Shown here: one piece after another, positions 1-36,282 of the stretch
How the letters are laid out: the number at the start of each line of letters is the position of its first letter
Numbering within the stretch: position 1 is the stretch's first letter
Source of the DNA: Anaerolineaceae bacterium 4572_78
Lineage (GTDB): Bacteria; Chloroflexota; Anaerolineae; 4572-78
Assembly (NCBI GenBank): GCA_002084875.1
Contig: NBMH01000001.1
Coordinates: forward strand, 1 to 37,711
DNA: 37,711 bases
Direction: 5' to 3'
Notes under the pieces: generated by a model
Told to the model about the DNA's origin: nothing
Database searches by the model: none
What the model saw: only the letters and a program-made list of their open reading frames with translations
Program-made: the position numbers and the translations under genes

Positions 1-242
1 ATTTCGTACCTCAATCTTATCCATGGGGTATTGTTTTTAACAGAATATGTAGAGATTTATGGTATAAATCCTACACGATGATAAGACATGTGTCCCATAT
101 TCCTGCCATGTTCTACCTGAAAAAATAGCATTGAACAGCTCTGAATAGTAAGGGCGTACGCCCGTACGCCCTTACAACTGGCATTGAACAGCCCTGGTAG
201 GGTGAACGGTTACGTTCCGTTTTACGGATTGTTTTCCTGAAT

Positions 243-271
243 TTGTTAAAAAATTGAGATTGATATATAAT
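243..271 (+). promoter_or_regulatory. Putative sigma70-type promoter upstream of the DprE1-like gene (-35 TTGTTA at 243-248; -10 TATATAAT at 264-271)
   Basis: TTGTTA, a 15-17-nt spacer and TATATAAT lie about 25 nt upstream of the ATG at 300. The hexamer match is visual only. Confidence 0.3.
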
Positions 272-299
272 GGCAATAATTTTGACATAATCAACATGG

Positions 300-1560
300 A
301 TGAACAAAAAAATGAAACGATACGAATCATGGGGAAAATACCCCACTGCACATCATAAAATTTACCCGCTTCAATGGCGAACCGATAAATTAGACATGGC
401 AACATTTGATAGAACGGTTTTGCCATTCGGACAGGGACGTAGTTATGGCGATAGCTGTTTGAATGATGGAGGAATCCTGCTCGATACTGAAGGATTAAAT
501 CGCCTAATTTCTTTCGACAGAGAAAAAGGTATCTTGCGATGCGAAGCAGGTTTAACGCTGGACAAAATTTTGGAATTGATTGTTCCACAAGGTTGGTTTT
601 TTCCTGTAACTCCTGGCACAAAATATGTTTCAGTTGGAGGGTGTATTGCTAATGATGTACATGGCAAAACACACCATCGGGAAGGTACGTTTGGGCATCA
701 TGTTTCATGCTTTGAGTTGATGCGTTCTAACGGTGAGCGATTGCTATGCTCCCCGACCGAAAATGAGGAGTTGTTTAGGGCAACAATTGGCGGACTAGGC
801 TTGACAGGATTAATCACTTGGGCAGAATTAACTCTAAAGCCCATCAAGAGTCCCTTCATTCGCATGGAAAGCATCAAGTTTGAAAACCTTGATAAATTTT
901 TTGAGGTTTCGGCAGAATCGGATGAAAAATTTGAGGCAACCATGGCTTGGGTAGATTGTCTTTCTCAAGGTGAGTCATTGGGACGAGGCATATTCATGGG
1001 CGGCAATTTTGCTGAACCTCCCTTTGACAAAACCCCCACTGGTCGCAGTAAAACATTATTTACTGTTCCCATAAATGCCCCAAATTTTGCCCTGAACACC
1101 TTAACCAGTCGAGCTTTTAATTATTTGTACTACAACAAACAACGAATAAAAATCCAAAGAAGTTTGCTCTATTATGAACCGTTTTTCTTTTGTTGTGCCG
1201 TATACAGATTATAATGCTATTCGCACCATTTTCCAAAAGATTGCCGAGTCAGGCTTGGGGTCATTTCTGGCAGTGCTAAAAACGTTCGGAGATATTCCAT
1301 CGTTGGGCATAATGTCTTTTCCACGTCAGGGAGTCAATTTAGCTCTTGATTTTCCTAATGACGGGACTAAAACATTTAACCTTTTGGAACAGCTCGACCA
1401 AATTGTTAAGGCAAATAATGGTTTGGTCTATCCTGCTAAAGATGCCCGCATGTCCGCTGATAGCTTTCAGTCATTTTATCCGCAATGGCATGAATTTGCC
1501 AAATATATTGACCCTAAGTTTTCATCTAGTTTTTGGCGGAGAGTAACAGTAAGCAAGTAG
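300..1560 (+). CDS. dprE1: FAD-binding oxidoreductase, DprE1-like (decaprenylphosphoryl-beta-D-ribose 2'-oxidase family); reading frame interrupted at a T5 run (1182-1186), so the ORF track splits it into 300..1214 and 1174..1560
   Basis: The N-terminus has the ESWGKYP motif typical of DprE1 (mycobacterial LTGWGRTAP). The protein aligns along its length to the FAD-linked oxidase family (VSVGGCIANDVHGK). The second ORF, FSFVVPYTDYNAIRTIFQKIAESGLGSFLAVLKTFGD..., matches the DprE1 C-terminus (FLQYQFVIP...SFLNVFKLFG). Deleting one T from the T5 run would fuse the two frames into ...YYEPFSFVVPY... Confidence 0.6.
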
Positions 1561-1622
1561 GTTGGGCATTTGCCCGCCTGCTAAACAAACAGGATGTCCG
1601 TTCTATATGAGGAGATATAACA

Positions 1623-2360
1623 ATGCACAAGATTTTAATTATCGGAGCCACTTCAGCAATTGCACAAGCTACAGCCACATATTTTGCAGCCGATGGTAAC
1701 ATGTTCTTCTTAGTAGCTCGTAATCAAGACCGATTACAAATAGTAACAGATGACTTGAAAGCACGAGGAGCAAATCAGGTCAGTTTTACGGCTATGGATG
1801 TTAATGAATTTGACCGCCATGAGCCTGTTATCCAAGAAGCTACCGAATCTATGCATGGCTTGAATATGGTGCTAATCGCACATGGCACGTTAGGTGACCA
1901 AAAAGTTGGGGAAAAAGATTATCATGTAGCAGAAGAGGAATTAAAAACAAATCTGTTAAGCACAATATCACTTTGTACAATTTTGGCTAATCAGTTTGAA
2001 TCCCAACGACATGGTACTTTAGCCGTAATCACCTCTGTGGCTGGGGATAGAGGTCGTCAGAGCAATTATATTTATGGTACTGCTCAAGGAGCAAAAAGCA
2101 TTTTCTTGCAAGGGCTACGCAACCGTCTAAGCCATGCGGGTGTTCAGGTGCTGACCATCAAGCCAGGTTTCATTGACACGCCCATGACAGCTCATCTGAA
2201 AAAAGGATTGCTTTTTGTTAAACCCGAAGTGGCGGGCAAAGCAATCTATCATGCAATTATCAAAAATAAAGATATTGCTTATGTACCTTCGTTTTGGTGG
2301 TTTATTATGACGGTAATTAAGTTGATACCCGAAGGAATTTTTAAGCGATTACGATTGTGA
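1623..2360 (+). CDS. dprE2: Short-chain dehydrogenase, DprE2-like (decaprenylphospho-D-erythro-pentofuranosid-2-ulose 2-reductase family)
   Basis: It has the Rossmann motif IIGATSAIAQA and the YGTAQGAK active-site Tyr/Lys. The C-terminus (IKPGFIDTPMTAHLKKG...KLIPEGIFKRLRL) is near-colinear with mycobacterial DprE2 (IRPGQVRTRMSAHLKEAP...RHIPRSIFRKLPI). It sits immediately downstream of the DprE1-like gene. Confidence 0.8.
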   Translation: MHKILIIGATSAIAQATATYFAADGNMFFLVARNQDRLQIVTDDLKARGANQVSFTAMDVNEFDRHEPVIQEATESMHGLNMVLIAHGTLGDQKVGEKDYHVAEEELKTNLLSTISLCTILANQFESQRHGTLAVITSVAGDRGRQSNYIYGTAQGAKSIFLQGLRNRLSHAGVQVLTIKPGFIDTPMTAHLKKGLLFVKPEVAGKAIYHAIIKNKDIAYVPSFWWFIMTVIKLIPEGIFKRLRL

Positions 2361-2376
2361 GGTATTGCGGTTGAAT

Positions 2377-3159
2377 TCATAAAATAACCTGTACTAATAG
2401 CATCAAACAAAACCCTATCACAAACGCCCATGCAATTTCTACCGGGCTTTTATCTTCAAGTGCTTCAGGGATGAGTTCCATGATTATCAAAAATATCATT
2501 GCCCCAGCGGCAAAACCTAAAAATGGGAGCATCAATGGTTTGAATAACCACACCAAAATACTTGCGGGAACGGCGGCAATTGGTTGAGGGAGGCTAGTGA
2601 GGAATGCCATGAAAAAGCAGTACATAATGCTTGCTCCTTTACTCCTCAAGGGAATAGAAATGGCTAATCCTTCGGGAATGTTATGGATGGCAATTGCCAG
2701 TGCGATATAATTCCCTAGATTTTCTGCACCAGCAATATGAGTTCCTGAAGCATAACCCACACCAACAGCAACACCTTCAGGGATACTGTGAAAGCTCATG
2801 GCAACGAAAATTAGAATTTCTGTTCGGTTGCCGATTTTGTTGAGGAATGAGTTTTCAAGTCGTTCGGGTGTTAAACTAACATTAACCGCCCATAAAAAAG
2901 CCGCCCCCAAAAGAATACCAATTAAAACAAGCGTTACTTGTTCAAAACTGGTATAGTCATTTTGCCCAAGTGTTAAGCCTGGTAAAATCAAGTTGTAAAC
3001 GGAAGCAGAAAACATCAACCCACCAGCAAAACCATAACCCAAACCCATATTTTTTTGGATATTTAGTCGTTTTATCAGTAATGGGAATGCTCCGCATCCA
3101 CAGGCGATACTTGCTAGAATGCCTGCAACCGTGGTTTCAACAAGAAAATCATATTTCAT
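2377..3159 (-). CDS. ZIP-family divalent metal (zinc) transporter, ZupT-like
   Basis: It is multi-pass hydrophobic and carries the two HNIPEG/HSIPEG ZIP signature motifs. The start is trimmed to ATG at 3159 (MKYDF...), preceded by GTGAGGTAATT with a GAGGT Shine-Dalgarno. The longer track ORF begins at 3225 without an RBS. Confidence 0.75.
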   Translation of the reverse strand: MKYDFLVETTVAGILASIACGCGAFPLLIKRLNIQKNMGLGYGFAGGLMFSASVYNLILPGLTLGQNDYTSFEQVTLVLIGILLGAAFLWAVNVSLTPERLENSFLNKIGNRTEILIFVAMSFHSIPEGVAVGVGYASGTHIAGAENLGNYIALAIAIHNIPEGLAISIPLRSKGASIMYCFFMAFLTSLPQPIAAVPASILVWLFKPLMLPFLGFAAGAMIFLIIMELIPEALEDKSPVEIAWAFVIGFCLMLLVQVIL

Positions 3160-3308
3160 AATTACCTCACTATTCGCATGGTAGTATAGCTGAATAGCAT
3201 GATTTGGCAAATTTACAAAGCACAAAGCAAATTTGCTAAATCCTACAAAATATGTATTATGTAGAAAAGATGAATATGAGTCCTTGACTCATATAAGGTA
3301 ATAGTCAA

Positions 3309-3337
3309 ACAAGAAAGGTTTTTAAAACCTTTCTTAT
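3309..3337. repeat. Copy 1 of a dispersed palindromic element (consensus GACAAGAAAGGTTTTTAAAACCTTTCTTGTC)
   Basis: This is a near-perfect inverted repeat AAGAAAGGTTTTT/AAAACCTTTCTT in the divergent intergenic region between the ZIP gene and the GT4 gene. The same unit recurs at 6156-6188 and 22760-22790, each preceded by tAGTCa. Confidence 0.7.
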
Positions 3338-3369
3338 TTTAACCATAATAGGTTCTAGTTAGACATACC

Positions 3370-4500
3370 ATGAAAATATTACATATCTACAAAGATTACT
3401 ACCCCATCAAAGGTGGAATTGAAAACATGCTAAAGTGGGTGGCAGAGGCTCAAGCTGAACTGGGGCATGATGTCACCGTGTTAGTTGCAAGCCTAAATCG
3501 TCAAGAACAGATTGACATGCAACAAGGTGTGCGAGTCCATAAAGTTCCCCGTTTGGCAACTGTTGCCTCCACCCCAATTACACCTACATTACCATTTGCA
3601 ATTCGTCGCTATAAGCCTGACATTGCCCATGTGCATAGCCCTTATCCGCCCGGTGAATTGTTCAATTATTTATTTGGCAGGGCAAAATTTTCGGTGATGA
3701 CTTATCATTCTGATGTTGTTCGGCAACAAACTCTTTTGAAATTTTATAAGCCATTGTTCAAAAGGGTGCTTAATCGGATTGATGTTATCATGCCTACCAG
3801 TGCCAACTATATCGAAAGTTCTTCGTTCATTCGCTCTCATAAGCATAAATGTCGGGTTGTGCCATTGGGCATTGATTTGTGTCGATTCGATACGCCGCCT
3901 TCAGCATTGGCACAAACGCTTAAGGAAATACATGGCTCGCCGTTGGTGTTGTTTGTGGGGCGTTTGCGTTACTATAAAGGAATCGATACCTTAATTGATG
4001 CTATGTCGCATGTCAACAAAGGAAAGGCATTGATTGTTGGTGACGGACCCTTGCGTGCTGAATTAGAGGCACATGTTAATCGTCTTAATTTAAGTGGTCA
4101 TGTTCATTTTGCGGGAGATGTGTCTAATGACGATTTGCCTGCTTATTTTCAGGCGGCAGATTGTTTTGTGTTGCCCTCCAATTCACGGGCGGAAGCCTTT
4201 GGCATTGTTTTGCTTGAGGCGATGGCATCAGGTTTGCCATGTATCAGTACTGAATTGGAAACAGGAACTTCATGGGTAGTGCAGGATGGGATTACGGGCT
4301 TTGTTGTTCCTCCACAAAATTCATCGGAACTTGCTCAAGCAATTAACACCATGCTTGGTGACAATGTCCTTCGTCGAAAAATGGCTCAGGCAAGTTTAAA
4401 ACGAGTGCATGCTAATTTTTCAAAAGAAAAAATGGTGAATAATATTATGCAAATTTACGAAGAATTACTGAAAGGAGTTTATTATGCGAAAAAAAATTAA
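3370..4500 (+). CDS. Glycosyltransferase, family 4 (GT-B fold, GT1 superfamily)
   Basis: The N-terminus MKILHIYKDYYPIKGGIENM is typical of GT4. The C-terminal half has the E-x7-E region (FVLPS...EAFGIVLLEAMASGLPCIST). Confidence 0.8.
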   Translation: MKILHIYKDYYPIKGGIENMLKWVAEAQAELGHDVTVLVASLNRQEQIDMQQGVRVHKVPRLATVASTPITPTLPFAIRRYKPDIAHVHSPYPPGELFNYLFGRAKFSVMTYHSDVVRQQTLLKFYKPLFKRVLNRIDVIMPTSANYIESSSFIRSHKHKCRVVPLGIDLCRFDTPPSALAQTLKEIHGSPLVLFVGRLRYYKGIDTLIDAMSHVNKGKALIVGDGPLRAELEAHVNRLNLSGHVHFAGDVSNDDLPAYFQAADCFVLPSNSRAEAFGIVLLEAMASGLPCISTELETGTSWVVQDGITGFVVPPQNSSELAQAINTMLGDNVLRRKMAQASLKRVHANFSKEKMVNNIMQIYEELLKGVYYAKKN

Positions 4501-6145
4501 CGATAATACAGGAGCAAGTCAAATGAAACAAACTTATGATTTTGATTTTATTGTAATTGGTTCGGGCTTTGGTGGAAGCGTCTCCGCACACCGTTTGACG
4601 GAGAAAGGCTATAAGGTTGGTGTCATAGAAAAAGGGAAACGATATCGCCCTAAGGATTTCCCGAAAACAAATTGGCACTTGAAAAAATTTCTCTGGTTTC
4701 CACAATTAAGCCTACATGGTTTTTTTCAAATGACTCTATTTAGTCATGTGTGGATTTTGACAGGAGTAGGCGTAGGTGGTGGTTCATTGGTCTATGCCTG
4801 TACTTCGTTACAACCTCCCGATACGATTTGGCATGACCACCGCTGGGCAAAATTAAATGATTGGGTAAATGTGATGCCCACATTTTTCGACGAATCTCGA
4901 CGAATGTTAGGCGTAAAAACTAACACCTATTTCGGCAGGGCTGATAAAATTTTACAAAAAGCTGCCGAAAATATCGGACGGGGAGATACCTATTATCCTA
5001 CTGAAGTCGCCGTTTATTTTGGTGAAAATGGAAAAGTTGTTCCTGACCCATATTTTGATGGTGAGGGTCCCGCTCGCACAGGGTGTAAACTTTGCGGCGG
5101 GTGCATGATTGGCTGTCGGAATGGGGCAAAAAATACATTGGATAGAAATTATCTCTACCTTGCCGAAAAGCATGGAACTAAGATTATTCCTGAAACGAGA
5201 GTGGTTAGTATTAAACCGCTCAATGGCTCAACTGATGGCAGTGATGGCTACGAAATTCATACCGTTAGTTCTACTCGGCTTTTTGGAAAAGAACGAAAAG
5301 TTTATCGTTCACGAGGAGTTGTCTTTTCAGGTGGTGTATTAGGGACAGTCAAATTAATGCTTGACATGAAGGAAAACGGTTCCATGCCATATCTGAGTGA
5401 CCAAGTGGGTGAGTATGTCCGCACCAATTCTGAATCAATCATCGGGATACAAATGGATGATGAAGGAATTGATGTTACTGATGGCATCGCCATTGGTTCG
5501 GGATTTTATTTGGATGACCATACTCATATTGAAGCGGTGCGTTATCCAAAAGGCTCTGATTCCATATCACTTGTCACGACATTGCTCACAGGTGGTAAAC
5601 TTGGGTCTTCACGCATTTTGTCATGGCTGAAGGTGATAGCACTCAATCCGATTAAATTTTTAAGGACACTAATTCCATTTGATTTTGCTAAAACTAACGT
5701 GATGTTGTTAGTCATGCAAACTATTGATAATCATATAAGGATGCGGCTCAAAAAATCATGGTATTCCCCATTTACAAAAACATTAGAGACAGTGGGAGCA
5801 AACATCCCAACTTATATTCCCCAAGCAAATCAATTTGCTGAAAAAATGGGACATGACTTGAATGGCACCCCCAAAACATCCCTCGCAGAAATATTTATGA
5901 ATGTGCCCACCACAGCTCATATCTTAGGTGGGGCAATCATGGGAGCAAATCCGAATGAGGGTGTCACTGATAATAAGAGTCGTATCTTTAATTATAAAAA
6001 CATGTATGTTTGCGATGGGAGTATGATTGGAGCAAATTTGGGGGTCAATCCAAGTTTAACCATCACTGCCCTAAGCGAATATGTCATGGATAATGTTCAA
6101 TCGGCTGATGAAACCGATTGGAATGAAATAGGACAAACACTTTAA
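4484..6145 (+). CDS. GMC-family FAD-dependent oxidoreductase (cholesterol oxidase / alcohol oxidase-like)
   Basis: An N-terminal FAD dinucleotide-binding motif DFIVIGSGFGGSVSAHRL is followed by a C-terminal GMC region (HILGGAIMG...NMYVCDGSMIGANLGVNPSLTITAL). The RBS AAGGAG sits 6 nt before the ATG at 4484. The start overlaps the GT4 stop by 17 nt, suggesting translational coupling. Confidence 0.75.
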   Translation: MRKKINDNTGASQMKQTYDFDFIVIGSGFGGSVSAHRLTEKGYKVGVIEKGKRYRPKDFPKTNWHLKKFLWFPQLSLHGFFQMTLFSHVWILTGVGVGGGSLVYACTSLQPPDTIWHDHRWAKLNDWVNVMPTFFDESRRMLGVKTNTYFGRADKILQKAAENIGRGDTYYPTEVAVYFGENGKVVPDPYFDGEGPARTGCKLCGGCMIGCRNGAKNTLDRNYLYLAEKHGTKIIPETRVVSIKPLNGSTDGSDGYEIHTVSSTRLFGKERKVYRSRGVVFSGGVLGTVKLMLDMKENGSMPYLSDQVGEYVRTNSESIIGIQMDDEGIDVTDGIAIGSGFYLDDHTHIEAVRYPKGSDSISLVTTLLTGGKLGSSRILSWLKVIALNPIKFLRTLIPFDFAKTNVMLLVMQTIDNHIRMRLKKSWYSPFTKTLETVGANIPTYIPQANQFAEKMGHDLNGTPKTSLAEIFMNVPTTAHILGGAIMGANPNEGVTDNKSRIFNYKNMYVCDGSMIGANLGVNPSLTITALSEYVMDNVQSADETDWNEIGQTL

Positions 6146-6155
6146 TCACATAGTC

Positions 6156-6188
6156 AGACAAGAAAGGTTTTTAAAAACCTGTGTTGTC
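6156..6188. repeat. Copy 2 of the palindromic element (GACAAGAAAGGTTTTTAAAAACCTGTGTTGTC), between the GMC oxidoreductase and the ALDH gene
   Basis: It is an imperfect inverted repeat of the same unit as at 3309-3337 and 22760-22790. It may also act as an intercistronic hairpin. Confidence 0.65.
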
Positions 6189-6206
6189 TTTAAGAAAAGG
6201 AGAAAA

Positions 6207-7811
6207 ATGACAGATAAAAAAATACTTACCTGCATCAATCCCGCTACAGGGGAAAAATTTGATGAGATAACAATGGCGACAGCCGAAGATGTCGCTACCG
6301 CATACAAAGACATGCGGCGGGCTAAAACGATATGGCAACAAAAATCGGTACATGAGCGGGTTCGCATCTTACGACAATTTCAATCGGTCATGGTCGATGC
6401 CCTCGACGAAATTACTTCGGTTATCAACCAGGACTGTGGCAAAAGTCGGCAGGATGCACTTTTAGAAGTTTTCGTTACTCTCGATTTACTTCGAGAATAT
6501 TGTAACCATGCCCCGAAATGGTTAGCACGAGAATATGTCCCATCGGGCTTACAATTTTTCAAGCGAGGCTATATTGAACATCGTCCTTACGGTGTGGTTT
6601 TGATTATAGCTCCATGGAATTATCCTTTTAATTTAGCTTTAGCACCAGTGTTATCAGCCTTATTTGCGGGAAATACGGTTTTGCTCAAATCATCAAAAAC
6701 GACAGCCGCCACAGGTAAATTAATTGAATCGCTATTCAAACGTGTTCCCGAGTTGGAGCCGTTTATTCGGATAGTGCATGGCGATAGTTCGGTGGGAAGG
6801 ATGTTAGTGAAGTCTGCCCCTGACCATATTTTTTTAACGGGGTCGGGTGCCACTGCCAGCAAAATTTTGCATGATGCGGCTGATAATTTAACTCCTGTAA
6901 CTTGTGAGCTCGGCGGCAAAGATGCCATGATTGTGCTTGATGATGCCGATGTAGAAAAAGCGGCAAAATGGGGCGTATGGGGAGCATTTTTCAATGCAGG
7001 ACAAACTTGCATGTCAGTGGAACGGGTTTATGTACATGCGTCCATTTACGATGAATTTGTCTGGCATGTTGTGGCTGAAACTGAATCCATCCAAATGGGC
7101 TATCATAAGGAAATGGTCAATTTTTGCCTTATTGGCTCCATGACCACATCTGAACAAGTCGACTTGGTCGAAGAACATTTAGCCGATGCTGTGGCGAAAG
7201 GTGCTAAAATTTTAGCGGGCGGCAGGCGACAAGACAATTTCTTTGAGCCGACGATTTTGGTTGATGTTGACCACACTATGAAGGTCATGCAAGAAGAGTC
7301 ATTTGGTCCATTCATACCGATAATGAAAGTGTCTGATGAGGCTGAAGCAATTCGGCTGGCAAATGATAGTATTTATGGATTGAGTGCTATCGTGTGGGGC
7401 AAAGATATTAAGCGAGCAGAACGAGTTGGGCATTATTTGGAAGCAGGTACTGTTATTATTAATGATGTCCTTGTTCATTTCGGGAATCCACTGTTGCCTT
7501 TTGGTGGAGTCAAGGAATCAGGAAATGGTCGTTCACATGGTAGAGCGGGCTTACTTGGGTTTACGGAACCACATTCCTACATGATAGGTAATCCACCTTA
7601 TTCATTTGACATTGCTACGATGTTACGTGAACCCGGCCAATATCATGCTAATTCAGCCATTTTACATCTGATTTTCGGTACATCGCCCAAGCAAAAATTG
7701 AGACCAATTTTGAAAGATAAGGAAACTATCAGTAAGGCAGTAAAACTGACCATGCTTGGTACTACACTAGGAATTGGTTTTAAGTGGTTGTGGCATGTGA
7801 TGAAAAGGTAA
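6207..7811 (+). CDS. Aldehyde dehydrogenase family protein with an extra ~60-aa hydrophobic C-terminal tail
   Basis: It has the ALDH signatures ELGGKDA and FFNAGQTCMSVERVYV (catalytic Cys), plus the glycine motif GSGATAS. The RBS AAAAGGAGAAAAATG is good. The C-terminal tail ...TMLGTTLGIGFKWLWHVMKR lies beyond the usual ALDH end. Confidence 0.8.
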   Translation: MTDKKILTCINPATGEKFDEITMATAEDVATAYKDMRRAKTIWQQKSVHERVRILRQFQSVMVDALDEITSVINQDCGKSRQDALLEVFVTLDLLREYCNHAPKWLAREYVPSGLQFFKRGYIEHRPYGVVLIIAPWNYPFNLALAPVLSALFAGNTVLLKSSKTTAATGKLIESLFKRVPELEPFIRIVHGDSSVGRMLVKSAPDHIFLTGSGATASKILHDAADNLTPVTCELGGKDAMIVLDDADVEKAAKWGVWGAFFNAGQTCMSVERVYVHASIYDEFVWHVVAETESIQMGYHKEMVNFCLIGSMTTSEQVDLVEEHLADAVAKGAKILAGGRRQDNFFEPTILVDVDHTMKVMQEESFGPFIPIMKVSDEAEAIRLANDSIYGLSAIVWGKDIKRAERVGHYLEAGTVIINDVLVHFGNPLLPFGGVKESGNGRSHGRAGLLGFTEPHSYMIGNPPYSFDIATMLREPGQYHANSAILHLIFGTSPKQKLRPILKDKETISKAVKLTMLGTTLGIGFKWLWHVMKR

Positions 7812-7908
7812 ATGTGTTGGATGGGTAGACCTGTCAGGTCTGAATCCAATATGACTTATGAAAAATTCATAGATTTGTTGAAGGATAAATATAGAAAGGA
7901 AAACACAA

Positions 7909-8679
7909 ATGAAATTATCAGGCAAAATTGTAATACTGACAGGTGCCAGTCAAGGAATAGGTAAGGCAGCCGCTTATAAATTTGCTCAAGCTGGTTGTAA
8001 AGTGGCGTTGGTAGCTCGTTCGGCAAAGATGCTGACCGAAATTGTCAAGGATATAGGAGAGAACCATGCTCTAGCTATTCCTGCCGATGTCAGTCAAAAA
8101 GAAGATTGTAAAAAAATTGTTGAAAAAACAATAGAACACTACGGTAAAGTAGATGTGTTGATAAATAATGCTGGAGTGGGGCTTTATCAACCAATGGAGT
8201 CTGTTTTGTTATCGGATATAAACACGGTAATGAACGTCAATTTTATAGGGGTGATTCAGTTAAGTCAAGCCGTTATTCCAAAGATGAGGACACATGGCGG
8301 GGGACTGATTATTAATGTTGCCTCTATCATTGGTAAGCGAGGTTTTCCAAACATGGGTATTTACTGTGCTAGTAAAGCCGCCCTAGAACGAATGACCGAA
8401 TCATGGCGGGTTGAGCAGGAGAAGGATAATATTCGTTTTAGCATGTGCTATCCTGGTATAACTCAAACTAATTTCCAGAAAAACACGTTGGGTATACCTC
8501 CTACCGACCAATTTAACCAGCTCGCAGGTGTTTCAGCTGAGCGTGTCGCATGGCAGATTGTTCAAACTGCTAGACGTGAATCTCGCGACGCTTATGTGAC
8601 GTTATTTGATAAAATGTTTATTTTGGGAACGAAGCATGTTCCTCATTTATTCGATATGATTTTTCGGCGGTATTCGTAG
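7909..8679 (+). CDS. SDR-family NAD(P)-dependent oxidoreductase
   Basis: It has the TGASQGIGKAAA Rossmann motif, NNAG, and the YCASKAA catalytic Tyr-x3-Lys. An AGGAAA-type RBS is present. Confidence 0.8.
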   Translation: MKLSGKIVILTGASQGIGKAAAYKFAQAGCKVALVARSAKMLTEIVKDIGENHALAIPADVSQKEDCKKIVEKTIEHYGKVDVLINNAGVGLYQPMESVLLSDINTVMNVNFIGVIQLSQAVIPKMRTHGGGLIINVASIIGKRGFPNMGIYCASKAALERMTESWRVEQEKDNIRFSMCYPGITQTNFQKNTLGIPPTDQFNQLAGVSAERVAWQIVQTARRESRDAYVTLFDKMFILGTKHVPHLFDMIFRRYS

Positions 8680-8926
8680 CCGCTCCCCCATCTCTAACTA
8701 GTTGTAGGGGCGGCCATACGCCCTTACTATTAGGGTTGTTCAAAGCTTGCTTTGACATGAAAAAGCAAGCTTTTTCGCTCCATTGTGCGACCACATGGTT
8801 GAAAATCATGTCGAAAAATATCCCAAGCCATGTTTTTTATTTAGCATTAAACAGCCCTACCACCTCTAACCCCTCCCCACATGGAGAGGGATTAGGGGGC
8901 GTGGAGGTGAACTGTTTGGCTATGGA
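8680..8926. repeat. Composite intergenic repeat region between convergent genes. It contains a GGGCG/CGCCC palindrome, the hairpin AAAGCTTGCTTT-gacatgaa-AAAGCAAGCTTT, a GCATTAAACAGCCC box and a G-rich tail ending GGAGGTGAAC
   Basis: Modules of this region recur at 100-215, 14620-14730, 18031-18056, 19262-19312, 24283-24362, 28735-28862 and 35641-35660. The copy at 28745-28860 is collinear with this one, except for a 33-nt insertion here (ttgtgcgaccacatggttgaaaatcatgtcgaa). Confidence 0.7.
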
Positions 8927-18210: not shown

Positions 18211-19110
18211 ATGTCAGTTGTGCTAACTCCAACTATTGAAAAACATACTAAAAAAATTAGTAGCAATAATGGTTATTGGTCAATGATGACTGATAATTGG
18301 TCAATTGTGACCGATAATTGGTTGCTGGTTTTAGATAGGTTACATGATTTGCCTGACCATACTCAACTTCCTGAAACGGACGGTGCTATCGTGGCAAACT
18401 TTCAAGAACATCCACAAAGTTCATTACTCTCGGACGCAATTACGCCCGTACTACAAGAAATACATCCCGATGGACAATATGCCATTGGACAAAATAGTTT
18501 GATTTATTGGGAATGGGTAGAGCCAGTATTGGATGGTGCTAAAGCTCCTGATTGGTTTTATGTTCCTAATGTAGCACCTTTGCTAGATGACGATTTTAGG
18601 AGGTCGTATGTGCTATGGAAAGAGCATGTTCCCCCCTTAATTGCAATTGAAATGGTGTCAGGCGATGGCAAAAACGAACGAAACCGAACACCAGGCACAG
18701 GTAAGTTATGGGTGTATGAGAATGGCATACGAATAAAATATTATGCCATAATAGATGCTTGGCGAAAAATATTGGAGGTGCGTAAATTGGTAAGAGGTAG
18801 CTATCAGTTACTAAAAGCAAATGAGCAAGGTCGCTATCTGATAGAAGAGCTGGGAGTGGAGATTGGCATGTGGACAGGCACATACCAAAACATGACCACA
18901 GACTGGTTGCGATTTTGGGATAGAGATGGCAACCTATTGTTGATAGGCGACGAGCGTGCCAAGCAGGAACGCATGCGTGCCGAACAAGCCGAAGCTAGCC
19001 TTCGCTTGAAAGACCAAGAGACTGCCCGCCGCATGTTAGCTAAAGGCATGAACGTAGCACTCATTTTTGAAATAACAGGGCTTTCAACAGATGAAATCGC
19101 TAAACTCTAA
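18211..19110 (+). CDS. Uma2-family (DUF820) putative restriction-endonuclease-like protein with a C-terminal coiled-coil/HTH-like extension
   Basis: It has the characteristic LPETDG...(acceptor-like) motif and the downstream EHVPPLIAIEMVSGDGKNERNRTPGTGKLWVYENGIRIKYYAIIDA core. This matches the Uma2 pattern ...PDLAVEVLSP...K...Y...GV.EYWIID. The C-terminal ~60 aa (ERAKQERMRAEQAEASLRLKDQE...) lie outside the core. Confidence 0.7.
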   Translation: MSVVLTPTIEKHTKKISSNNGYWSMMTDNWSIVTDNWLLVLDRLHDLPDHTQLPETDGAIVANFQEHPQSSLLSDAITPVLQEIHPDGQYAIGQNSLIYWEWVEPVLDGAKAPDWFYVPNVAPLLDDDFRRSYVLWKEHVPPLIAIEMVSGDGKNERNRTPGTGKLWVYENGIRIKYYAIIDAWRKILEVRKLVRGSYQLLKANEQGRYLIEELGVEIGMWTGTYQNMTTDWLRFWDRDGNLLLIGDERAKQERMRAEQAEASLRLKDQETARRMLAKGMNVALIFEITGLSTDEIAKL

Positions 19111-22723: not shown

Positions 22724-22759
22724 GTTTACCTGTAGACTTTTTTTATACCTACAGTCTAA

Positions 22760-22790
22760 GACAAGAAAGGTTTTAAAAACCTTTCTTGTC
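22760..22790. repeat. Copy 3 of the palindromic element (GACAAGAAAGGTTTTAAAAACCTTTCTTGTC), a perfect 12-bp stem between holA and its upstream gene
   Basis: It is a perfect inverted repeat, the same unit as at 3309-3337 and 6156-6188. Confidence 0.75.
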
Positions 22791-22803
22791 TGTCCATTGT
22801 CTT

Positions 22804-28734: not shown

Positions 28735-28862
28735 ATTGGAGCGTCAAAGCTTGCTTTGACATGAAAAAGCAAGCTTTTTCGCTCCATAAATATCCCAAGC
28801 CATGTTTTTTGTTTTAGCATTAAACAGCCCTAATTGTAGGGGAGTGGTGATGGTGAAACGTT
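28735..28862. repeat. Composite intergenic repeat (hairpin AAAGCTTGCTTT-gacatgaa-AAAGCAAGCTTT, GCATTAAACAGCCC box, GGGGAGTGGTGATGGTGAAACG tail); collinear copy of 8735-8920
   Basis: It is near-identical over ~90 nt with 8738-8862 but lacks the 33-nt insertion found in that copy. Confidence 0.7.
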
Positions 28863-34005: not shown

Positions 34006-35628
34006 ATGAAAAAAGTACTATTAAGTGGAAACGAAGCAGTCGCTCGTGGAGCATGGGAGCACGGTGTTTCCATTGCTACAGCTTATCCTGGTACACCAAG
34101 TACCGAGATATTGCAAAATATTGCCCTATACGACGAGATTTATGCTGAATGGGCAACTAATGAAAAAGTTGCTTTTGATACCGCCGTTGGGGCAGCTTAT
34201 GCTGGAAAAAGAACCTTAGTAGCTATGAAGCATGTTGGCTTAAATGTAGCTTCAGAGGTTTTGTTTTATTCATCCTACACAGGAATTGATGCAGGTTTAG
34301 TAGTCATTACAGCCGACGACCCTGGCATGCACTCATCTCAAAATGAGCAGGATAATCGTCGTTATGCCAAATTTGCTAAAGTTCCCATGCTTGAACCTGC
34401 TGATAGCCAAGAAGCAAAAGAATTTGTCGGCTTATGTCTGGAATTGAGTGAGCAATTTGATACTCCTGTTCTACTACGAATGACCACGCGCACCTCGCAT
34501 TCCAAAGCAGCCGTTACGTTGGGTGAACGTCAGGAAATAGAACAGCATCCGTATAAAAAGGATGCTTCTAAACGAGCTATGATTCCCCTTTATGCCCGTA
34601 GGCGGCATGTAATAATTGAGGAACGGACAACACAACTTCGCCAATGGGCAGAAGAAACTGATATAAATCGGGTTGAGATGGATGACACATCGTTAGGCAT
34701 TATCACGGCTGGGATTGCTTATCAGTATGCCAAAGACATTTTCCCCAATGCATCTTTCTTAAAATTGGGTATGGCTTGGCCCATGCCTGAAAAACGCATT
34801 AGGGATTTTGCCAATTCGGTTGACCGTCTGATAGTTATTGAGGAACTCGAACCATTTATTGAGGAAAAGGTTAAACAATTAGGCATAAAAGTGGAGGGAA
34901 AAACGATTTTTCCTATCACTGGTGAATTCACGCCTGAAGTGGTACGAACTTCGGCTATAAATTATGCTTTAGGAGTGTTATCACCGTTAGATGCCGCAGA
35001 TTCACTTGGCTCAATGGGGTCAAGTATTGGGGTGGCGATGGGAGGTAGTTTAGCGGGAATAGAAAACAAGAAAAATATAGCTATTATTGGTGATGGTACC
35101 TTTTTCCATTCGGGATTGTCTGCTTTAGCTTCTGCCGTTTATAACCAAGTTCCAGTAACTATTATTGTTGTAGATAATCGTACCACAGGTATGACGGGGC
35201 ATCAAGGTCATCCAGGCACAGGGAAAACCCTACAAGGTAATAAGCATGAAGAAGTGAGTATAGCAAACGTTGCTAAAGCGTTGGGTGTACATCATGTTTA
35301 TGAAGTTGATGCTCGTAATTTGAAAAAGATGGAGCAGACAATTAGGCAGGCAATAAATTTAGATGAGCCTGTGGTTGTGGTAGCTCAAACTGTATGTGTA
35401 TTCGTAAGTTCTCATAATCGAGAAGCATACAAAATTATATTGGAAAACTGTAATGGATGTACATTATGTTTCAGAATTGGTTGCCCTGCGATTAGTAAAT
35501 CTGAAGAACGAGACCAAAAAACAGACCGTCCCAAAGCATGGATTGACCCAGTCATGTGTACAGGGTGTGGTTTATGCCTTGATGTGTGTGCTCGTCAGGC
35601 AATTGAAGAAGGAGAAGTTAAGAGTTAG
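34006..35628 (+). CDS. iorA: Indolepyruvate:ferredoxin oxidoreductase alpha subunit (IorA; TPP-binding, 2x[4Fe-4S] C-terminus)
   Basis: The N-terminus MKKVLLSGNEAVARGAWEHGVSIATAYPGTPSTEIL is typical of IorA/2-oxoacid:ferredoxin oxidoreductases. TPP motif GDGTFFHSG. C-terminal CNGCTLCFRIGCP and CTGCGLCLDVC ferredoxin clusters. RBS AAGGAGGTG. Confidence 0.85.
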   Translation: MKKVLLSGNEAVARGAWEHGVSIATAYPGTPSTEILQNIALYDEIYAEWATNEKVAFDTAVGAAYAGKRTLVAMKHVGLNVASEVLFYSSYTGIDAGLVVITADDPGMHSSQNEQDNRRYAKFAKVPMLEPADSQEAKEFVGLCLELSEQFDTPVLLRMTTRTSHSKAAVTLGERQEIEQHPYKKDASKRAMIPLYARRRHVIIEERTTQLRQWAEETDINRVEMDDTSLGIITAGIAYQYAKDIFPNASFLKLGMAWPMPEKRIRDFANSVDRLIVIEELEPFIEEKVKQLGIKVEGKTIFPITGEFTPEVVRTSAINYALGVLSPLDAADSLGSMGSSIGVAMGGSLAGIENKKNIAIIGDGTFFHSGLSALASAVYNQVPVTIIVVDNRTTGMTGHQGHPGTGKTLQGNKHEEVSIANVAKALGVHHVYEVDARNLKKMEQTIRQAINLDEPVVVVAQTVCVFVSSHNREAYKIILENCNGCTLCFRIGCPAISKSEERDQKTDRPKAWIDPVMCTGCGLCLDVCARQAIEEGEVKS

Positions 35629-35700
35629 GAGTTTGGAGGGACAAAGCTTGCTTTGTCATGTCATATTTTCAAACTTCCAAAATTATACACGGAGAAAATC

Positions 35701-36282
35701 ATGAAAAAAACAAACTTTTTCGTTGTCGGTGTCGGAGGACAAGGCACATTATTAGCTAGTAATATCATTGCTGAAACGGGTTTATATATTGGACTCGATG
35801 CTAAAAAATCGGAAGTGCATGGTATGGCTCAACGAGGTGGTATAGTCACTAGTCATATCCGTTGGGATGAACATGTAGCTTCGCCTTTGTGTGAGCCAGG
35901 CACGGTAGATTATTTCATCGCCCAAGAAATGCTAGAAGGCATGCGTTGGATACACTTTCTAAAGCCTGGTGGTACAGTGATTATTAGTCATCAGCATTTA
36001 CCACCCACATCAACGGTACTTGGCTCGGTTGTATATCCATCTGATGAAGAAATCATGACCAAGCTAAAAGAATGGACAGATAATATTCTGATGATAGATG
36101 CGGCTGGCATTGCCAATAAACTCGGTAATCTGCGGGTGTCAAACAGTATATTAATCGGAGCATTATCTTCGGTCATGGACGTATCCCCTGAAGACTGGTT
36201 AGCAGTTCTGACAAGTAGAGTGCCTGCTCGTCATAAGGAAATTAATCGTCAAGCGTTCTTAGCTGGACGTGCAGGAAAGTAG
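35701..36282 (+). CDS. iorB: Indolepyruvate:ferredoxin oxidoreductase beta subunit (IorB)
   Basis: FVVGVGGQGTLLASNIIAE...HGMAQRGG is the pyruvate/ketoisovalerate oxidoreductase gamma-type fold found in IorB. Start set at ATG 35701 with GGAG 6 nt upstream (the track ORF starts at 35653 without an RBS). It follows iorA directly. Confidence 0.8.
   Translation: MKKTNFFVVGVGGQGTLLASNIIAETGLYIGLDAKKSEVHGMAQRGGIVTSHIRWDEHVASPLCEPGTVDYFIAQEMLEGMRWIHFLKPGGTVIISHQHLPPTSTVLGSVVYPSDEEIMTKLKEWTDNILMIDAAGIANKLGNLRVSNSILIGALSSVMDVSPEDWLAVLTSRVPARHKEINRQAFLAGRAGK

Follow-up and report, generated by a model that had tools for sequence, protein, structure and literature searches.

A DprE1/DprE2-type gene pair with a disrupted oxidase gene in an Anaerolineaceae contig, probably lying beside a glycosyltransferase-oxidoreductase string by chance

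Genes at the locus

We analysed a 37,711-nt stretch of DNA (the window), the whole of contig NBMH01000001.1 of Anaerolineaceae bacterium 4572_78 (Chloroflexota), and, within it, positions 300-8679, where genes for a DprE1-like FAD oxidase and a DprE2-like short-chain dehydrogenase/reductase (SDR) precede genes for a family 4 glycosyltransferase (GT4), a GMC flavoprotein oxidoreductase, an aldehyde dehydrogenase (ALDH) and a second SDR (Table 1). The G+C content is about 40% across the contig. An original prediction, made from the DNA letters, had named these gene types, and all of them were found roughly where it had placed them; it had not seen that the DprE1-like gene is split, and it had missed a ZIP metal transporter gene on the minus strand. 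The ZIP gene is convergent with the DprE2-like gene and divergent from the GT4 gene, and thus separates the two. Because it lies on the opposite strand between them, the region holds at least three transcription units.

The DprE1-like and DprE2-like genes are co-oriented with a gap of 62 nt. The spacer between the ZIP and GT4 genes (3226-3369) contains promoter-like sites pointing both ways, and a further site precedes the DprE1-like gene, but the total number of such sites in positions 1-9000 is not above the shuffled expectation. An Rfam scan of the window returned a tRNA-Leu as its sole match.

Table 1. Features of positions 243-8679 of the window
Feature	Position	Strand	Evidence and remarks
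Promoter-like site TTGTTA-17-TATAAT	243-271	+	10/12 consensus positions, pattern match alone; start of the DprE1-like gene ~40 nt further on
DprE1-like gene, 5' part: FAD-binding domain and first half of the substrate domain	312-1187 (300 alternative start)	+	Frame 3, ORF stop at 1214; Pfam FAD_binding_4 PF01565, 76 bits
Deletion junction within T-rich run ccgTTTTTCTTTTGttg	1185-1192	+	~65 nt absent, frame shifted
DprE1-like gene, 3' part	1189-1560 (ORF listed 1174-1560)	+	Frame 1; NCBIfam DprE1 profile 323-446, 87 bits
DprE2-like short-chain reductase, apparently intact	1623-2360	+	NCBIfam PRK07102, 317.8 bits (cut-off 267)
ZIP/ZupT-type metal transporter	2377-3225	-	Pfam Zip, 54.8 bits; NCBIfam ZupT, 92 bits, under cut-off; five hydrophobic segments
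Palindrome copy, 33-37 nt, AAACAAGAAAGGTTTT.AAAACCTTTCTTATTT	3304-3340		ZIP/GT4 divergent spacer
GT4 glycosyltransferase (GT-B, nucleotide-sugar type)	3370-4500	+	Pfam Glycos_transf_1, 150 bits; Glyco_transf_4, 69 bits
GMC flavoprotein oxidoreductase, 'cholesterol oxidase-like'	4484-6145 (alternative start 4523)	+	NCBIfam NF058674, 779.2 bits (cut-off 850)
Palindrome, second copy	6155-6189		Between GMC stop and ALDH start
Aldehyde dehydrogenase (ALDH) with ~75-aa C-terminal extension	6207-7811	+	Pfam Aldedh, 433.6 bits, residues 5-455
Classical SDR oxidoreductase	7909-8679	+	Pfam adh_short, 196 bits; below every NCBIfam equivalog cut-off

The DprE1-like gene lacks a conserved segment

The DprE1-like gene is not a single open reading frame (ORF) but runs in two frames, 312-1187 in frame 3 and 1189-1560 in frame 1. 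A profile scan with the NCBIfam DprE1 model matched positions 35-291 and 323-446 only, leaving positions 292-322 unmatched. When the closest intact relative (P0002) was compared with the window by tblastn, its residues 1-296 mapped to 312-1190 in frame 3 with 64% identity and its residues 315-438 to 1180-1548 in frame 1 with 65% identity. At the junction itself the nucleotides read ...Y-E-P-F-F up to nt 1187, then a single extra T, and then F-V-V-P-Y from nt 1189. The relatives, which are 437-446 amino acids long, have at this place the segment Y-P-L-D-x4-W-N-R-x-Y-G-x2-G-F-x-Q-Y-Q, so that the window is short of about 65 nt, one base fewer than 22 codons.

No stretch of the family is more conserved than the deleted segment, which contains 9 of the 78 near-invariant columns in an alignment of 70 sequences. 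Alignment to DprE1 of Mycobacterium smegmatis (4AUT) equates it with residues 315-336 of DprE1 from Mycobacterium tuberculosis (Mtb). In Mtb numbering, the substrate-binding domain includes residues 316-330 (PMC4366402), and the residues that line the ligand pocket include M319, F320 and Q334 (PMC11588222). The substrate-binding domain of the window gene is therefore not full length: the equivalent of Mtb 315-336 is gone, and the reading passes from frame 3 to frame 1 near nt 1188.

For comparison we used 83 DprE loci with 10-kb flanks. All 83 comparator DprE1 genes gave one continuous full-length high-scoring segment pair, making the window copy the sole broken one of 84. A programmed frameshift, or a DprE1 split into two cooperating polypeptides, was considered and ruled out, because the 22 residues, 9 of them near-invariant, are absent from all frames. 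The DprE1 homologue that had been proposed as one gene thus has its frame broken by a deletion of about 65 nt, and, as sequenced, this gene could not yield a functional oxidase.

Outside the gap, the gene has two substitutions at near-invariant columns, one of which (T to N) equals Mtb N385. The catalytic lysine (Mtb K418) is retained in the 3' part (YPAKDARM, compared with YTAKDSR in 4AUT). The position of Mtb Cys387, the benzothiazinone target, is occupied by Ala (GVNLALDF, compared with GWNVCVDF in 4AUT); Cys387 is dispensable for DprE1 catalysis, and the position bears on drug sensitivity only. Because the rest of the DprE1-like gene is conserved and the DprE2-like gene is unaltered, the lesion is either a recent event or an assembly artefact.

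Assignment of the pair to the DprE1/DprE2 clade

DprE1 structures were the best PDB match of the intact relative P0002 (E 6e-77 over the full length), the next family being the cytokinin oxidases at 1e-10, and an intact family member is 39% identical to M. smegmatis DprE1 and colinear with it from end to end. On the NCBIfam DprE1 model NF053785 (cut-off 500) intact relatives scored 368-415 bits, with other models at 49 bits or less. The two fragments encoded in the window scored 221.7 and 87.2 bits on the same model, and DprE1 was the top NCBIfam match for both.

The best PDB match of the DprE2-like protein of the window was 21gq_C (E 2.8e-29, residues 4-243; next match 7e-15), from an entry for the DprE1-DprE2 complex. 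The protein is 29% identical to the Mtb DprE2 of that entry and aligns with it over its whole length, tail included, bearing out the C-terminal colinearity that had been predicted. It shows no deviation at 42 near-invariant columns, and its score on the DprE2 equivalog model NF053786 is 176.1 bits, below the cut-off of 250. By homology, the window pair belongs to the DprE1/DprE2 clade as a sister family rather than as a strict equivalog. The structure matches and NCBIfam scores thus uphold the claim of adjacent DprE1- and DprE2-type genes, but at 39% identity (the intact relative against M. smegmatis DprE1) and 29% (the window DprE2-like protein against Mtb DprE2) to call them 'close homologues' was an overstatement. 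Neighbour-joining trees of DprE1 and DprE2 were poorly resolved at about 55-60% identity, and we draw no phylogenetic claim from them.

An altered catalytic motif in the DprE2-like reductase

The DprE2-like protein of the window reads Y151-G-T-A-Q155, followed by Lys158, and so departs from the canonical Tyr-x3-Lys pair of SDR enzymes. K155 is found in 56 of 60 family sequences; the other four, the window protein included, carry Y-x3-[Q/M]-x2-K, and all four are from Anaerolineae. The three reductases that share Q/M155 and K158 with the window (L037 11323-12060, L035 11327-12064 and L022 3801-4538) each have an intact DprE1 partner. The neighbour-joining trees did not place the window DprE2 with these sequences. 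The shifted lysine looks like a lineage-specific, possibly compensated variant and not like decay, and it could mark a functionally distinct subgroup of Anaerolineae reductases.

Distribution and gene neighbourhood of the family

The family is large. A protein search gave at least 8000 candidates at about 55-64% identity, the named matches listed coming from Caldilineae, Ardenticatena, Ktedonosporobacter, Aggregatilinea, Nitrospinota, Oligoflexia and Methylomirabilis. A scan of species-representative genomes confirmed 592 of 600 candidate stretches, and hence at least 592 species; the phyla among the matches listed include Chloroflexota, Pseudomonadota, Myxococcota, Acidobacteriota, Verrucomicrobiota, Bdellovibrionota and Gemmatimonadota, with others besides. 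The original prediction had stressed that the pair lies outside the Actinobacteria, but with so many species over many phyla the family is common there, and systems of this kind have already been described by experiment in Pseudomonas and for Gram-negative O-antigens.

Among the comparator loci DprE2 adjoins DprE1 in 73 of 83, an adjacency far beyond chance. Directly upstream of the pair, 46 of the 83 loci carry a gene for a fusion of about 480 amino acids between a HAD domain and a UbiA phosphoribosyltransferase (HAD-UbiA). This protein matches NCBIfam PRK08238 (658 bits), and its UbiA half matches decaprenyl-phosphate phosphoribosyltransferase models. When the flanking ORFs were clustered de novo, the sole further recurrent neighbour was a flippase-like LPG_synthase_TM protein, found in about 10 loci. 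One locus from an uncultured bacterium (L003 8216-15064) has, in a row, HAD-UbiA, DprE1, DprE2, a TIGR00374 flippase-like LPG_synthase_TM protein and a 678-aa DUF2079 membrane protein, and may be regarded as a complete candidate pentofuranose system. The flippases described to date have been of the MATE and GtrA types, to neither of which the one at this locus belongs.

Chloroflexota pairs mostly stand alone amid housekeeping genes (for example L001, L002, L008 and L018), and nearly all of the Chloroflexota loci examined have no HAD-UbiA gene within 10 kb of the pair. In one Chloroflexota metagenome-assembled genome (MAG; L055) HAD-UbiA is directly upstream of DprE1. The Chloroflexota proteins are 55-60% identical to proteobacterial members encoded in HAD-UbiA operons.

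The remaining pathway genes were sought in the window. Pfam scans of the 37.7 kb found no gene for a PRPP:polyprenyl-phosphate phosphoribosyltransferase (PPPRS), a UbiA-family enzyme that is usually fused to a HAD phosphatase. GT-C, GtrA, MATE and LPG_synthase_TM likewise had no match there, and no protein other than the ZIP transporter is strongly polytopic. With a Chloroflexota HAD-UbiA as query, a search gave 5465 matches, of which the best 120 include no 4572_78 protein, a result that is uninformative for this genome.

The glycosyltransferase-oxidoreductase string

The GT4, GMC, ALDH and second SDR genes lie on one strand with gaps of -17 or +22 nt, 61 nt and 97 nt. The first value depends on the GMC start. 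With the ATG at 4484 the GT4 and GMC genes overlap by 17 nt, as had been predicted, whereas the ATG at 4523 leaves a gap of 22 nt; the latter has an AGGAG Shine-Dalgarno sequence equal to that of ATG 4484 and matches a 540-aa NCBI protein. The catalytic motifs are kept in all four products: EX7E (GT4), GSGFGGS (GMC), ELGGKD and GQTC (ALDH), and TGxxxGIG and YxxxK (SDR). None of the four reaches an NCBIfam equivalog cut-off, and the GT4 is far below all of them. The GMC protein is 100% identical to the NCBI entry 'MAG: cholesterol oxidase [Anaerolineaceae bacterium 4572_78]'. The ALDH is generic (PRK09407, 423 bits; cut-off 521). Its supposed hydrophobic C-terminal tail exists as an extension of about 75 amino acids whose last 20 or so residues are moderately hydrophobic, but no 19-aa window within it reaches a Kyte-Doolittle value of 1.6.

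GT4 enzymes are Leloir transferases, with nucleotide sugars as donors. Polyprenyl-phospho-pentose donors are used by GT-C enzymes (PMC11127046). The proposal that the GT4 of the window, which is of the nucleotide-sugar type, transfers a lipid-linked pentose is not supported.

In tblastn searches with the window proteins, homologues of GMC, ALDH and ZIP were found at none of the 83 DprE loci. GT4 homologues occur near two of them, neither contiguous with the pair. In L008, from Anaerolineae, a 50%-identical GT4 lies about 4 kb from the pair, separated from it by an MFS gene on the opposite strand and by an ORF that fuses peptidase M24 and PRA-cyclohydrolase; in L068 a 38%-identical GT4 lies about 4.5 kb upstream. 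The reciprocal set comprised 37 loci with GMC relatives, the full-length matches having 41-63% identity in the longest aligned segment. Homologues of DprE1, DprE2, GT4 and the second SDR were found by tblastn at none of these 37 loci, and ALDH at one; nor did gene calls around three further GMC relatives reveal an ALDH, GT or DprE-type neighbour. These counts and the intervening ZIP gene do not support the claim that the pair is embedded in a glycosyltransferase/oxidoreductase cluster.

GMC relatives were found beside acyl-CoA dehydrogenases and a TetR regulator (L122 919-7569 and L123 4629-11317), beside a WS/DGAT (wax-ester synthase), an acyl-CoA ligase and an HMG-CoA reductase (L085 3046-9641), and beside a TRAP transporter and an aldehyde:ferredoxin oxidoreductase (L086 4160-12077). 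These neighbours hint at lipid or alcohol oxidation and not at glycan synthesis. Elsewhere in the window, at 34006-36282 on the plus strand, lies a gene pair of the indolepyruvate/2-oxoacid:ferredoxin oxidoreductase type (TPP_enzyme_C/POR_N with 4Fe-4S, then POR gamma). This pair fits an anaerobic host, which makes an O2-dependent 'oxidase' role of the GMC protein less likely.

Repeats and other genes in the window

A palindrome of about 33 nt, AGACAAGAAAGGTTTT(T)AAAACCTTTCTTGTCT, is present in three intergenic copies, at 3304-3340, at 6155-6189 and, in perfect form, at 22759-22791 upstream of holA. Its half-site has six matches, compared with 0.14 expected. A 27-nt sequence containing the palindrome recurs upstream of both the GT4 and the ALDH genes. 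An operator shared by these two genes was considered, but the idea is weakened by the third, perfect copy upstream of holA, and a REP-like element is more likely. Otherwise the palindrome could serve a global regulator as its operator.

A dispersed intergenic repeat of about 100 nt has near-identical copies at 8735-8860 and 28742-28833 and partial relatives at 123-196. It holds a terminator-like hairpin, AAAGCTTGCTTT...AAAGCAAGCTTT, followed by Ts, and a motif, GCATTRAACAGCCCTR, with five matches compared with 0.52 expected. At 123-196 two copies of this motif flank a GC-rich hairpin, GTAAGGGCGTACG/CGTACGCCCTTAC. A genomic island bounded by the repeats at 123-196 and 8711-8859 was ruled out, because the near-identical element at 28742-28833 marks the repeat as dispersed.

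Two large genes also deserve mention. The gene at 15540-18023 (plus strand) encodes an 827-aa protein with a significant Pfam MVP_shoulder match (92.9 bits) and a weak Vault_3 repeat, which make it a bacterial relative of the major vault protein of eukaryotes; it had no sequence-level match in the PDB. On one side of this gene lies a weak PD-(D/E)XK-like ORF (14841-15476), on the other a Uma2-family endonuclease-like gene (18211-19110). The product of the minus-strand gene at 8927-12583 is 1218 amino acids long, has a signal-like hydrophobic segment at its N-terminus and matches nothing in Pfam; it is probably a large protein that is secreted or placed on the cell surface.

Discussion

The 8.4-kb stretch is probably made up of three unrelated transcription units that lie side by side by chance, the oxidase of the first being disrupted. 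Unit 1 (312-2360) would be a two-gene operon of the dprE1-dprE2 type. From its homology and from the linkage to the HAD phosphatase and UbiA, we infer that the family acts as a C2' epimerase on polyprenyl-phospho-beta-D-ribofuranose: the FAD oxidase would give a 2'-keto intermediate, which the SDR would reduce to polyprenyl-phospho-D-arabinofuranose for use by GT-C glycosyltransferases. In the copy described here the oxidase seems to have lost about 65 nt and with them the invariant PLD...WNR.YG..GF.QYQ; the reductase is still intact, hence the lesion would be recent. Unit 2 (2377-3225, minus strand) would be a ZIP metal transporter that is part of neither module. Unit 3 (3370-8679) would be a GT4-GMC-ALDH-SDR string that is not conserved elsewhere, and its GMC-ALDH(-SDR) portion would most plausibly convert a lipophilic alcohol to an aldehyde and then to an acid.

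The role of the family in converting polyprenyl-phospho-ribose to polyprenyl-phospho-arabinose is well founded, because the clade assignment is joined by the linkage to a HAD-UbiA phosphoribosyltransferase. The polyprenyl-phospho-arabinofuranose route is already known outside the Actinobacteria and is very widespread there. In Pseudomonas aeruginosa Pa5196, homologues of PPPRS, DprE1 and DprE2 are required for glycosylation of pilin with D-arabinofuranose (D-Araf), and the biosynthetic and transferase genes of the pathway can be unlinked (bioRxiv 10.1101/2020.04.19.049825). Systems of PPPRS, flippase and GT-C add pentofuranoses to Gram-negative glycans, and those that add Araf also have DprE1/DprE2 homologues (Kelly et al. 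2024, PMC11127046). The literature that we searched held no link between a D-arabinofuranose glycan and Chloroflexota. The predicted role in making a lipid-linked arabinose donor therefore stands for the family at large but not for this locus, where the oxidase gene is broken as sequenced and the GT4 is of the nucleotide-sugar type.

Several points weigh against our reading. The genes from GT4 to SDR share one strand, short gaps and the 27-nt sequence, which makes some co-regulation within that unit possible. The substrate proposed for unit 3 is drawn solely from the neighbours of homologues, and the epimerase activity of the Chloroflexota members is likewise assigned from homology. Moreover, the contig has only 311 nt of sequence before dprE1, beginning with a non-coding, promoter-like spacer, and a PPPRS, a GT-C enzyme or a second, intact dprE1 may be encoded elsewhere. 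Finally, the metagenome assembly may be in error at the deletion or may have taken up a minority allele there.

If the deletion is an artefact of assembly or consensus, or a minority allele, then an intact operon would work with PPPRS, flippase and GT-C encoded elsewhere, as for the stand-alone pairs of other Chloroflexota. This explanation is unlikely, but several points favour it. The gene is otherwise well conserved, with only the two near-invariant substitutions noted above outside the gap, one of them matching Mtb N385; the DprE2-like gene is fully conserved; stand-alone pairs such as L001, L002, L008 and L018 are the rule in Chloroflexota; and the junction falls inside a T-rich, low-complexity run. 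Nonetheless, an internal loss of 65 nt is atypical of short-read assembly error, and no frameshift or internal gap was seen in any of the 83 comparator genes, most of which come from MAGs. In addition, the DprE1-like fragment (P0001) is listed by JGI only and the GMC protein by NCBI, a difference that would fit treatment of the broken gene as a pseudogene by NCBI.

A real and recent deletion would have a further consequence. The oxidase half of the epimerase would have been knocked out naturally, with the reductase kept, in a lineage with an unusual DprE2 motif; we consider this proposal, taken as a whole, improbable. If it were true, the donor would revert from arabinose to ribose and a Chloroflexota surface glycan would be altered, by analogy with the O1 and O2 antigens of Citrobacter youngae.

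Two other explanations fare worse. The original prediction joined all seven same-strand genes in one cluster, with the GT4 transferring a lipid-linked Araf or other 2'-epimerised pentose and the GMC, ALDH and SDR enzymes oxidising the product. The genes are indeed physically close, those from GT4 to SDR share a strand with short gaps, and L008 has its 50%-identical GT4 some 4 kb from the pair. That GT4, however, is cut off from the pair by the MFS gene and the peptidase M24/PRA-cyclohydrolase ORF. In the window the opposite-strand ZIP gene interrupts the row, dprE1 is broken, GT4 donors are nucleotide sugars and not polyprenyl-phospho-sugars, and no PPPRS or GT-C gene is present; GMC and ALDH are missing from all 83 DprE loci, and DprE and GT4 from all 37 GMC loci and from the surroundings of the three further GMC relatives. 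The comparative data largely refute this model, which we regard as very improbable. Equally improbable is that the stand-alone pair of Chloroflexota acts on a substrate other than polyprenyl-phospho-ribose: the rarity of HAD-UbiA within 10 kb of the Chloroflexota pairs and the Anaerolineae subgroup with the non-canonical Y-x3-[Q/M]-x2-K motif would fit such a substrate, but the 55-60% identity to proteobacterial members in HAD-UbiA operons, the HAD-UbiA gene directly upstream of DprE1 in L055 and the precedent of unlinked pathway genes in P. aeruginosa (bioRxiv 10.1101/2020.04.19.049825) all argue against it.

With three units placed together by chance as the preferred reading, what looked like an 'arabinose glycolipid cluster' is a chance juxtaposition, and the value of the result lies mainly in correct annotation: DprE1/DprE2-type pairs are commonplace outside the Actinobacteria, and the copy in the window is disrupted. 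It is modestly useful that Chloroflexota widely carry stand-alone DprE1/DprE2 pairs and that a subgroup of Anaerolineae reductases has an unusual catalytic motif. Either point could help to direct the study of glycans in cultured relatives, for example Aggregatilinea lenta or Ktedonobacter racemifer.

Comparison with known systems

The GMC protein of unit 3 aligns end to end with the model NF058674, 'cholesterol oxidase ChoxAB', and has the FAD motif GSGFGGS, yet its 779 bits are under the cut-off of 850. Solved cholesterol oxidases are distant from it (E 4e-24, partial alignment). It is encoded in a MAG of an uncultured member of the Anaerolineaceae, and the neighbours of its relatives suggest fatty acyl or alcohol metabolism and not sterols.

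Compared with DprE1 (Rv3790) and DprE2 (Rv3791) of mycobacteria, the window pair has the same two folds in the same gene order. The window family differs in that it falls below the NCBI equivalog cut-offs and has Ala in place of Cys387, although the equivalent of the catalytic Lys418 is kept. In place of a separate phosphatase of the Rv3807c type, the wider family has a HAD domain that is joined to the UbiA transferase. The window pair itself departs further, with an oxidase that lacks residues 315-336 and is frameshifted and a reductase that has Gln for the lysine of YxxxK.

The Gram-negative pentofuranose systems, including that of Pa5196 (PsPA7_6245-6249), resemble the family of the window in the order HAD-UbiA/DprE1/DprE2, which 46 of the 83 loci show, and some loci of the family, such as L003, add a flippase-like gene and a gene for a large polytopic membrane protein. 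A further likeness is that genes for biosynthesis and for transfer can be unlinked, as in Pseudomonas. The window, in contrast, holds the epimerase pair only, with no PPPRS, flippase or GT-C gene in its 37.7 kb. Its likeness to C. youngae would lie in a naturally decayed epimerase gene of a pentofuranose donor pathway whose remnants were left in place. In that species, loss of the orf13 epimerase between O1 and O2 switches the side chain from xylofuranose (Xylf) to ribofuranose (Ribf) (PMC11127046). The enzymes differ, because the C. youngae epimerase is a single GalE-like SDR acting at C3, whereas the DprE1/DprE2 pair would act at C2.

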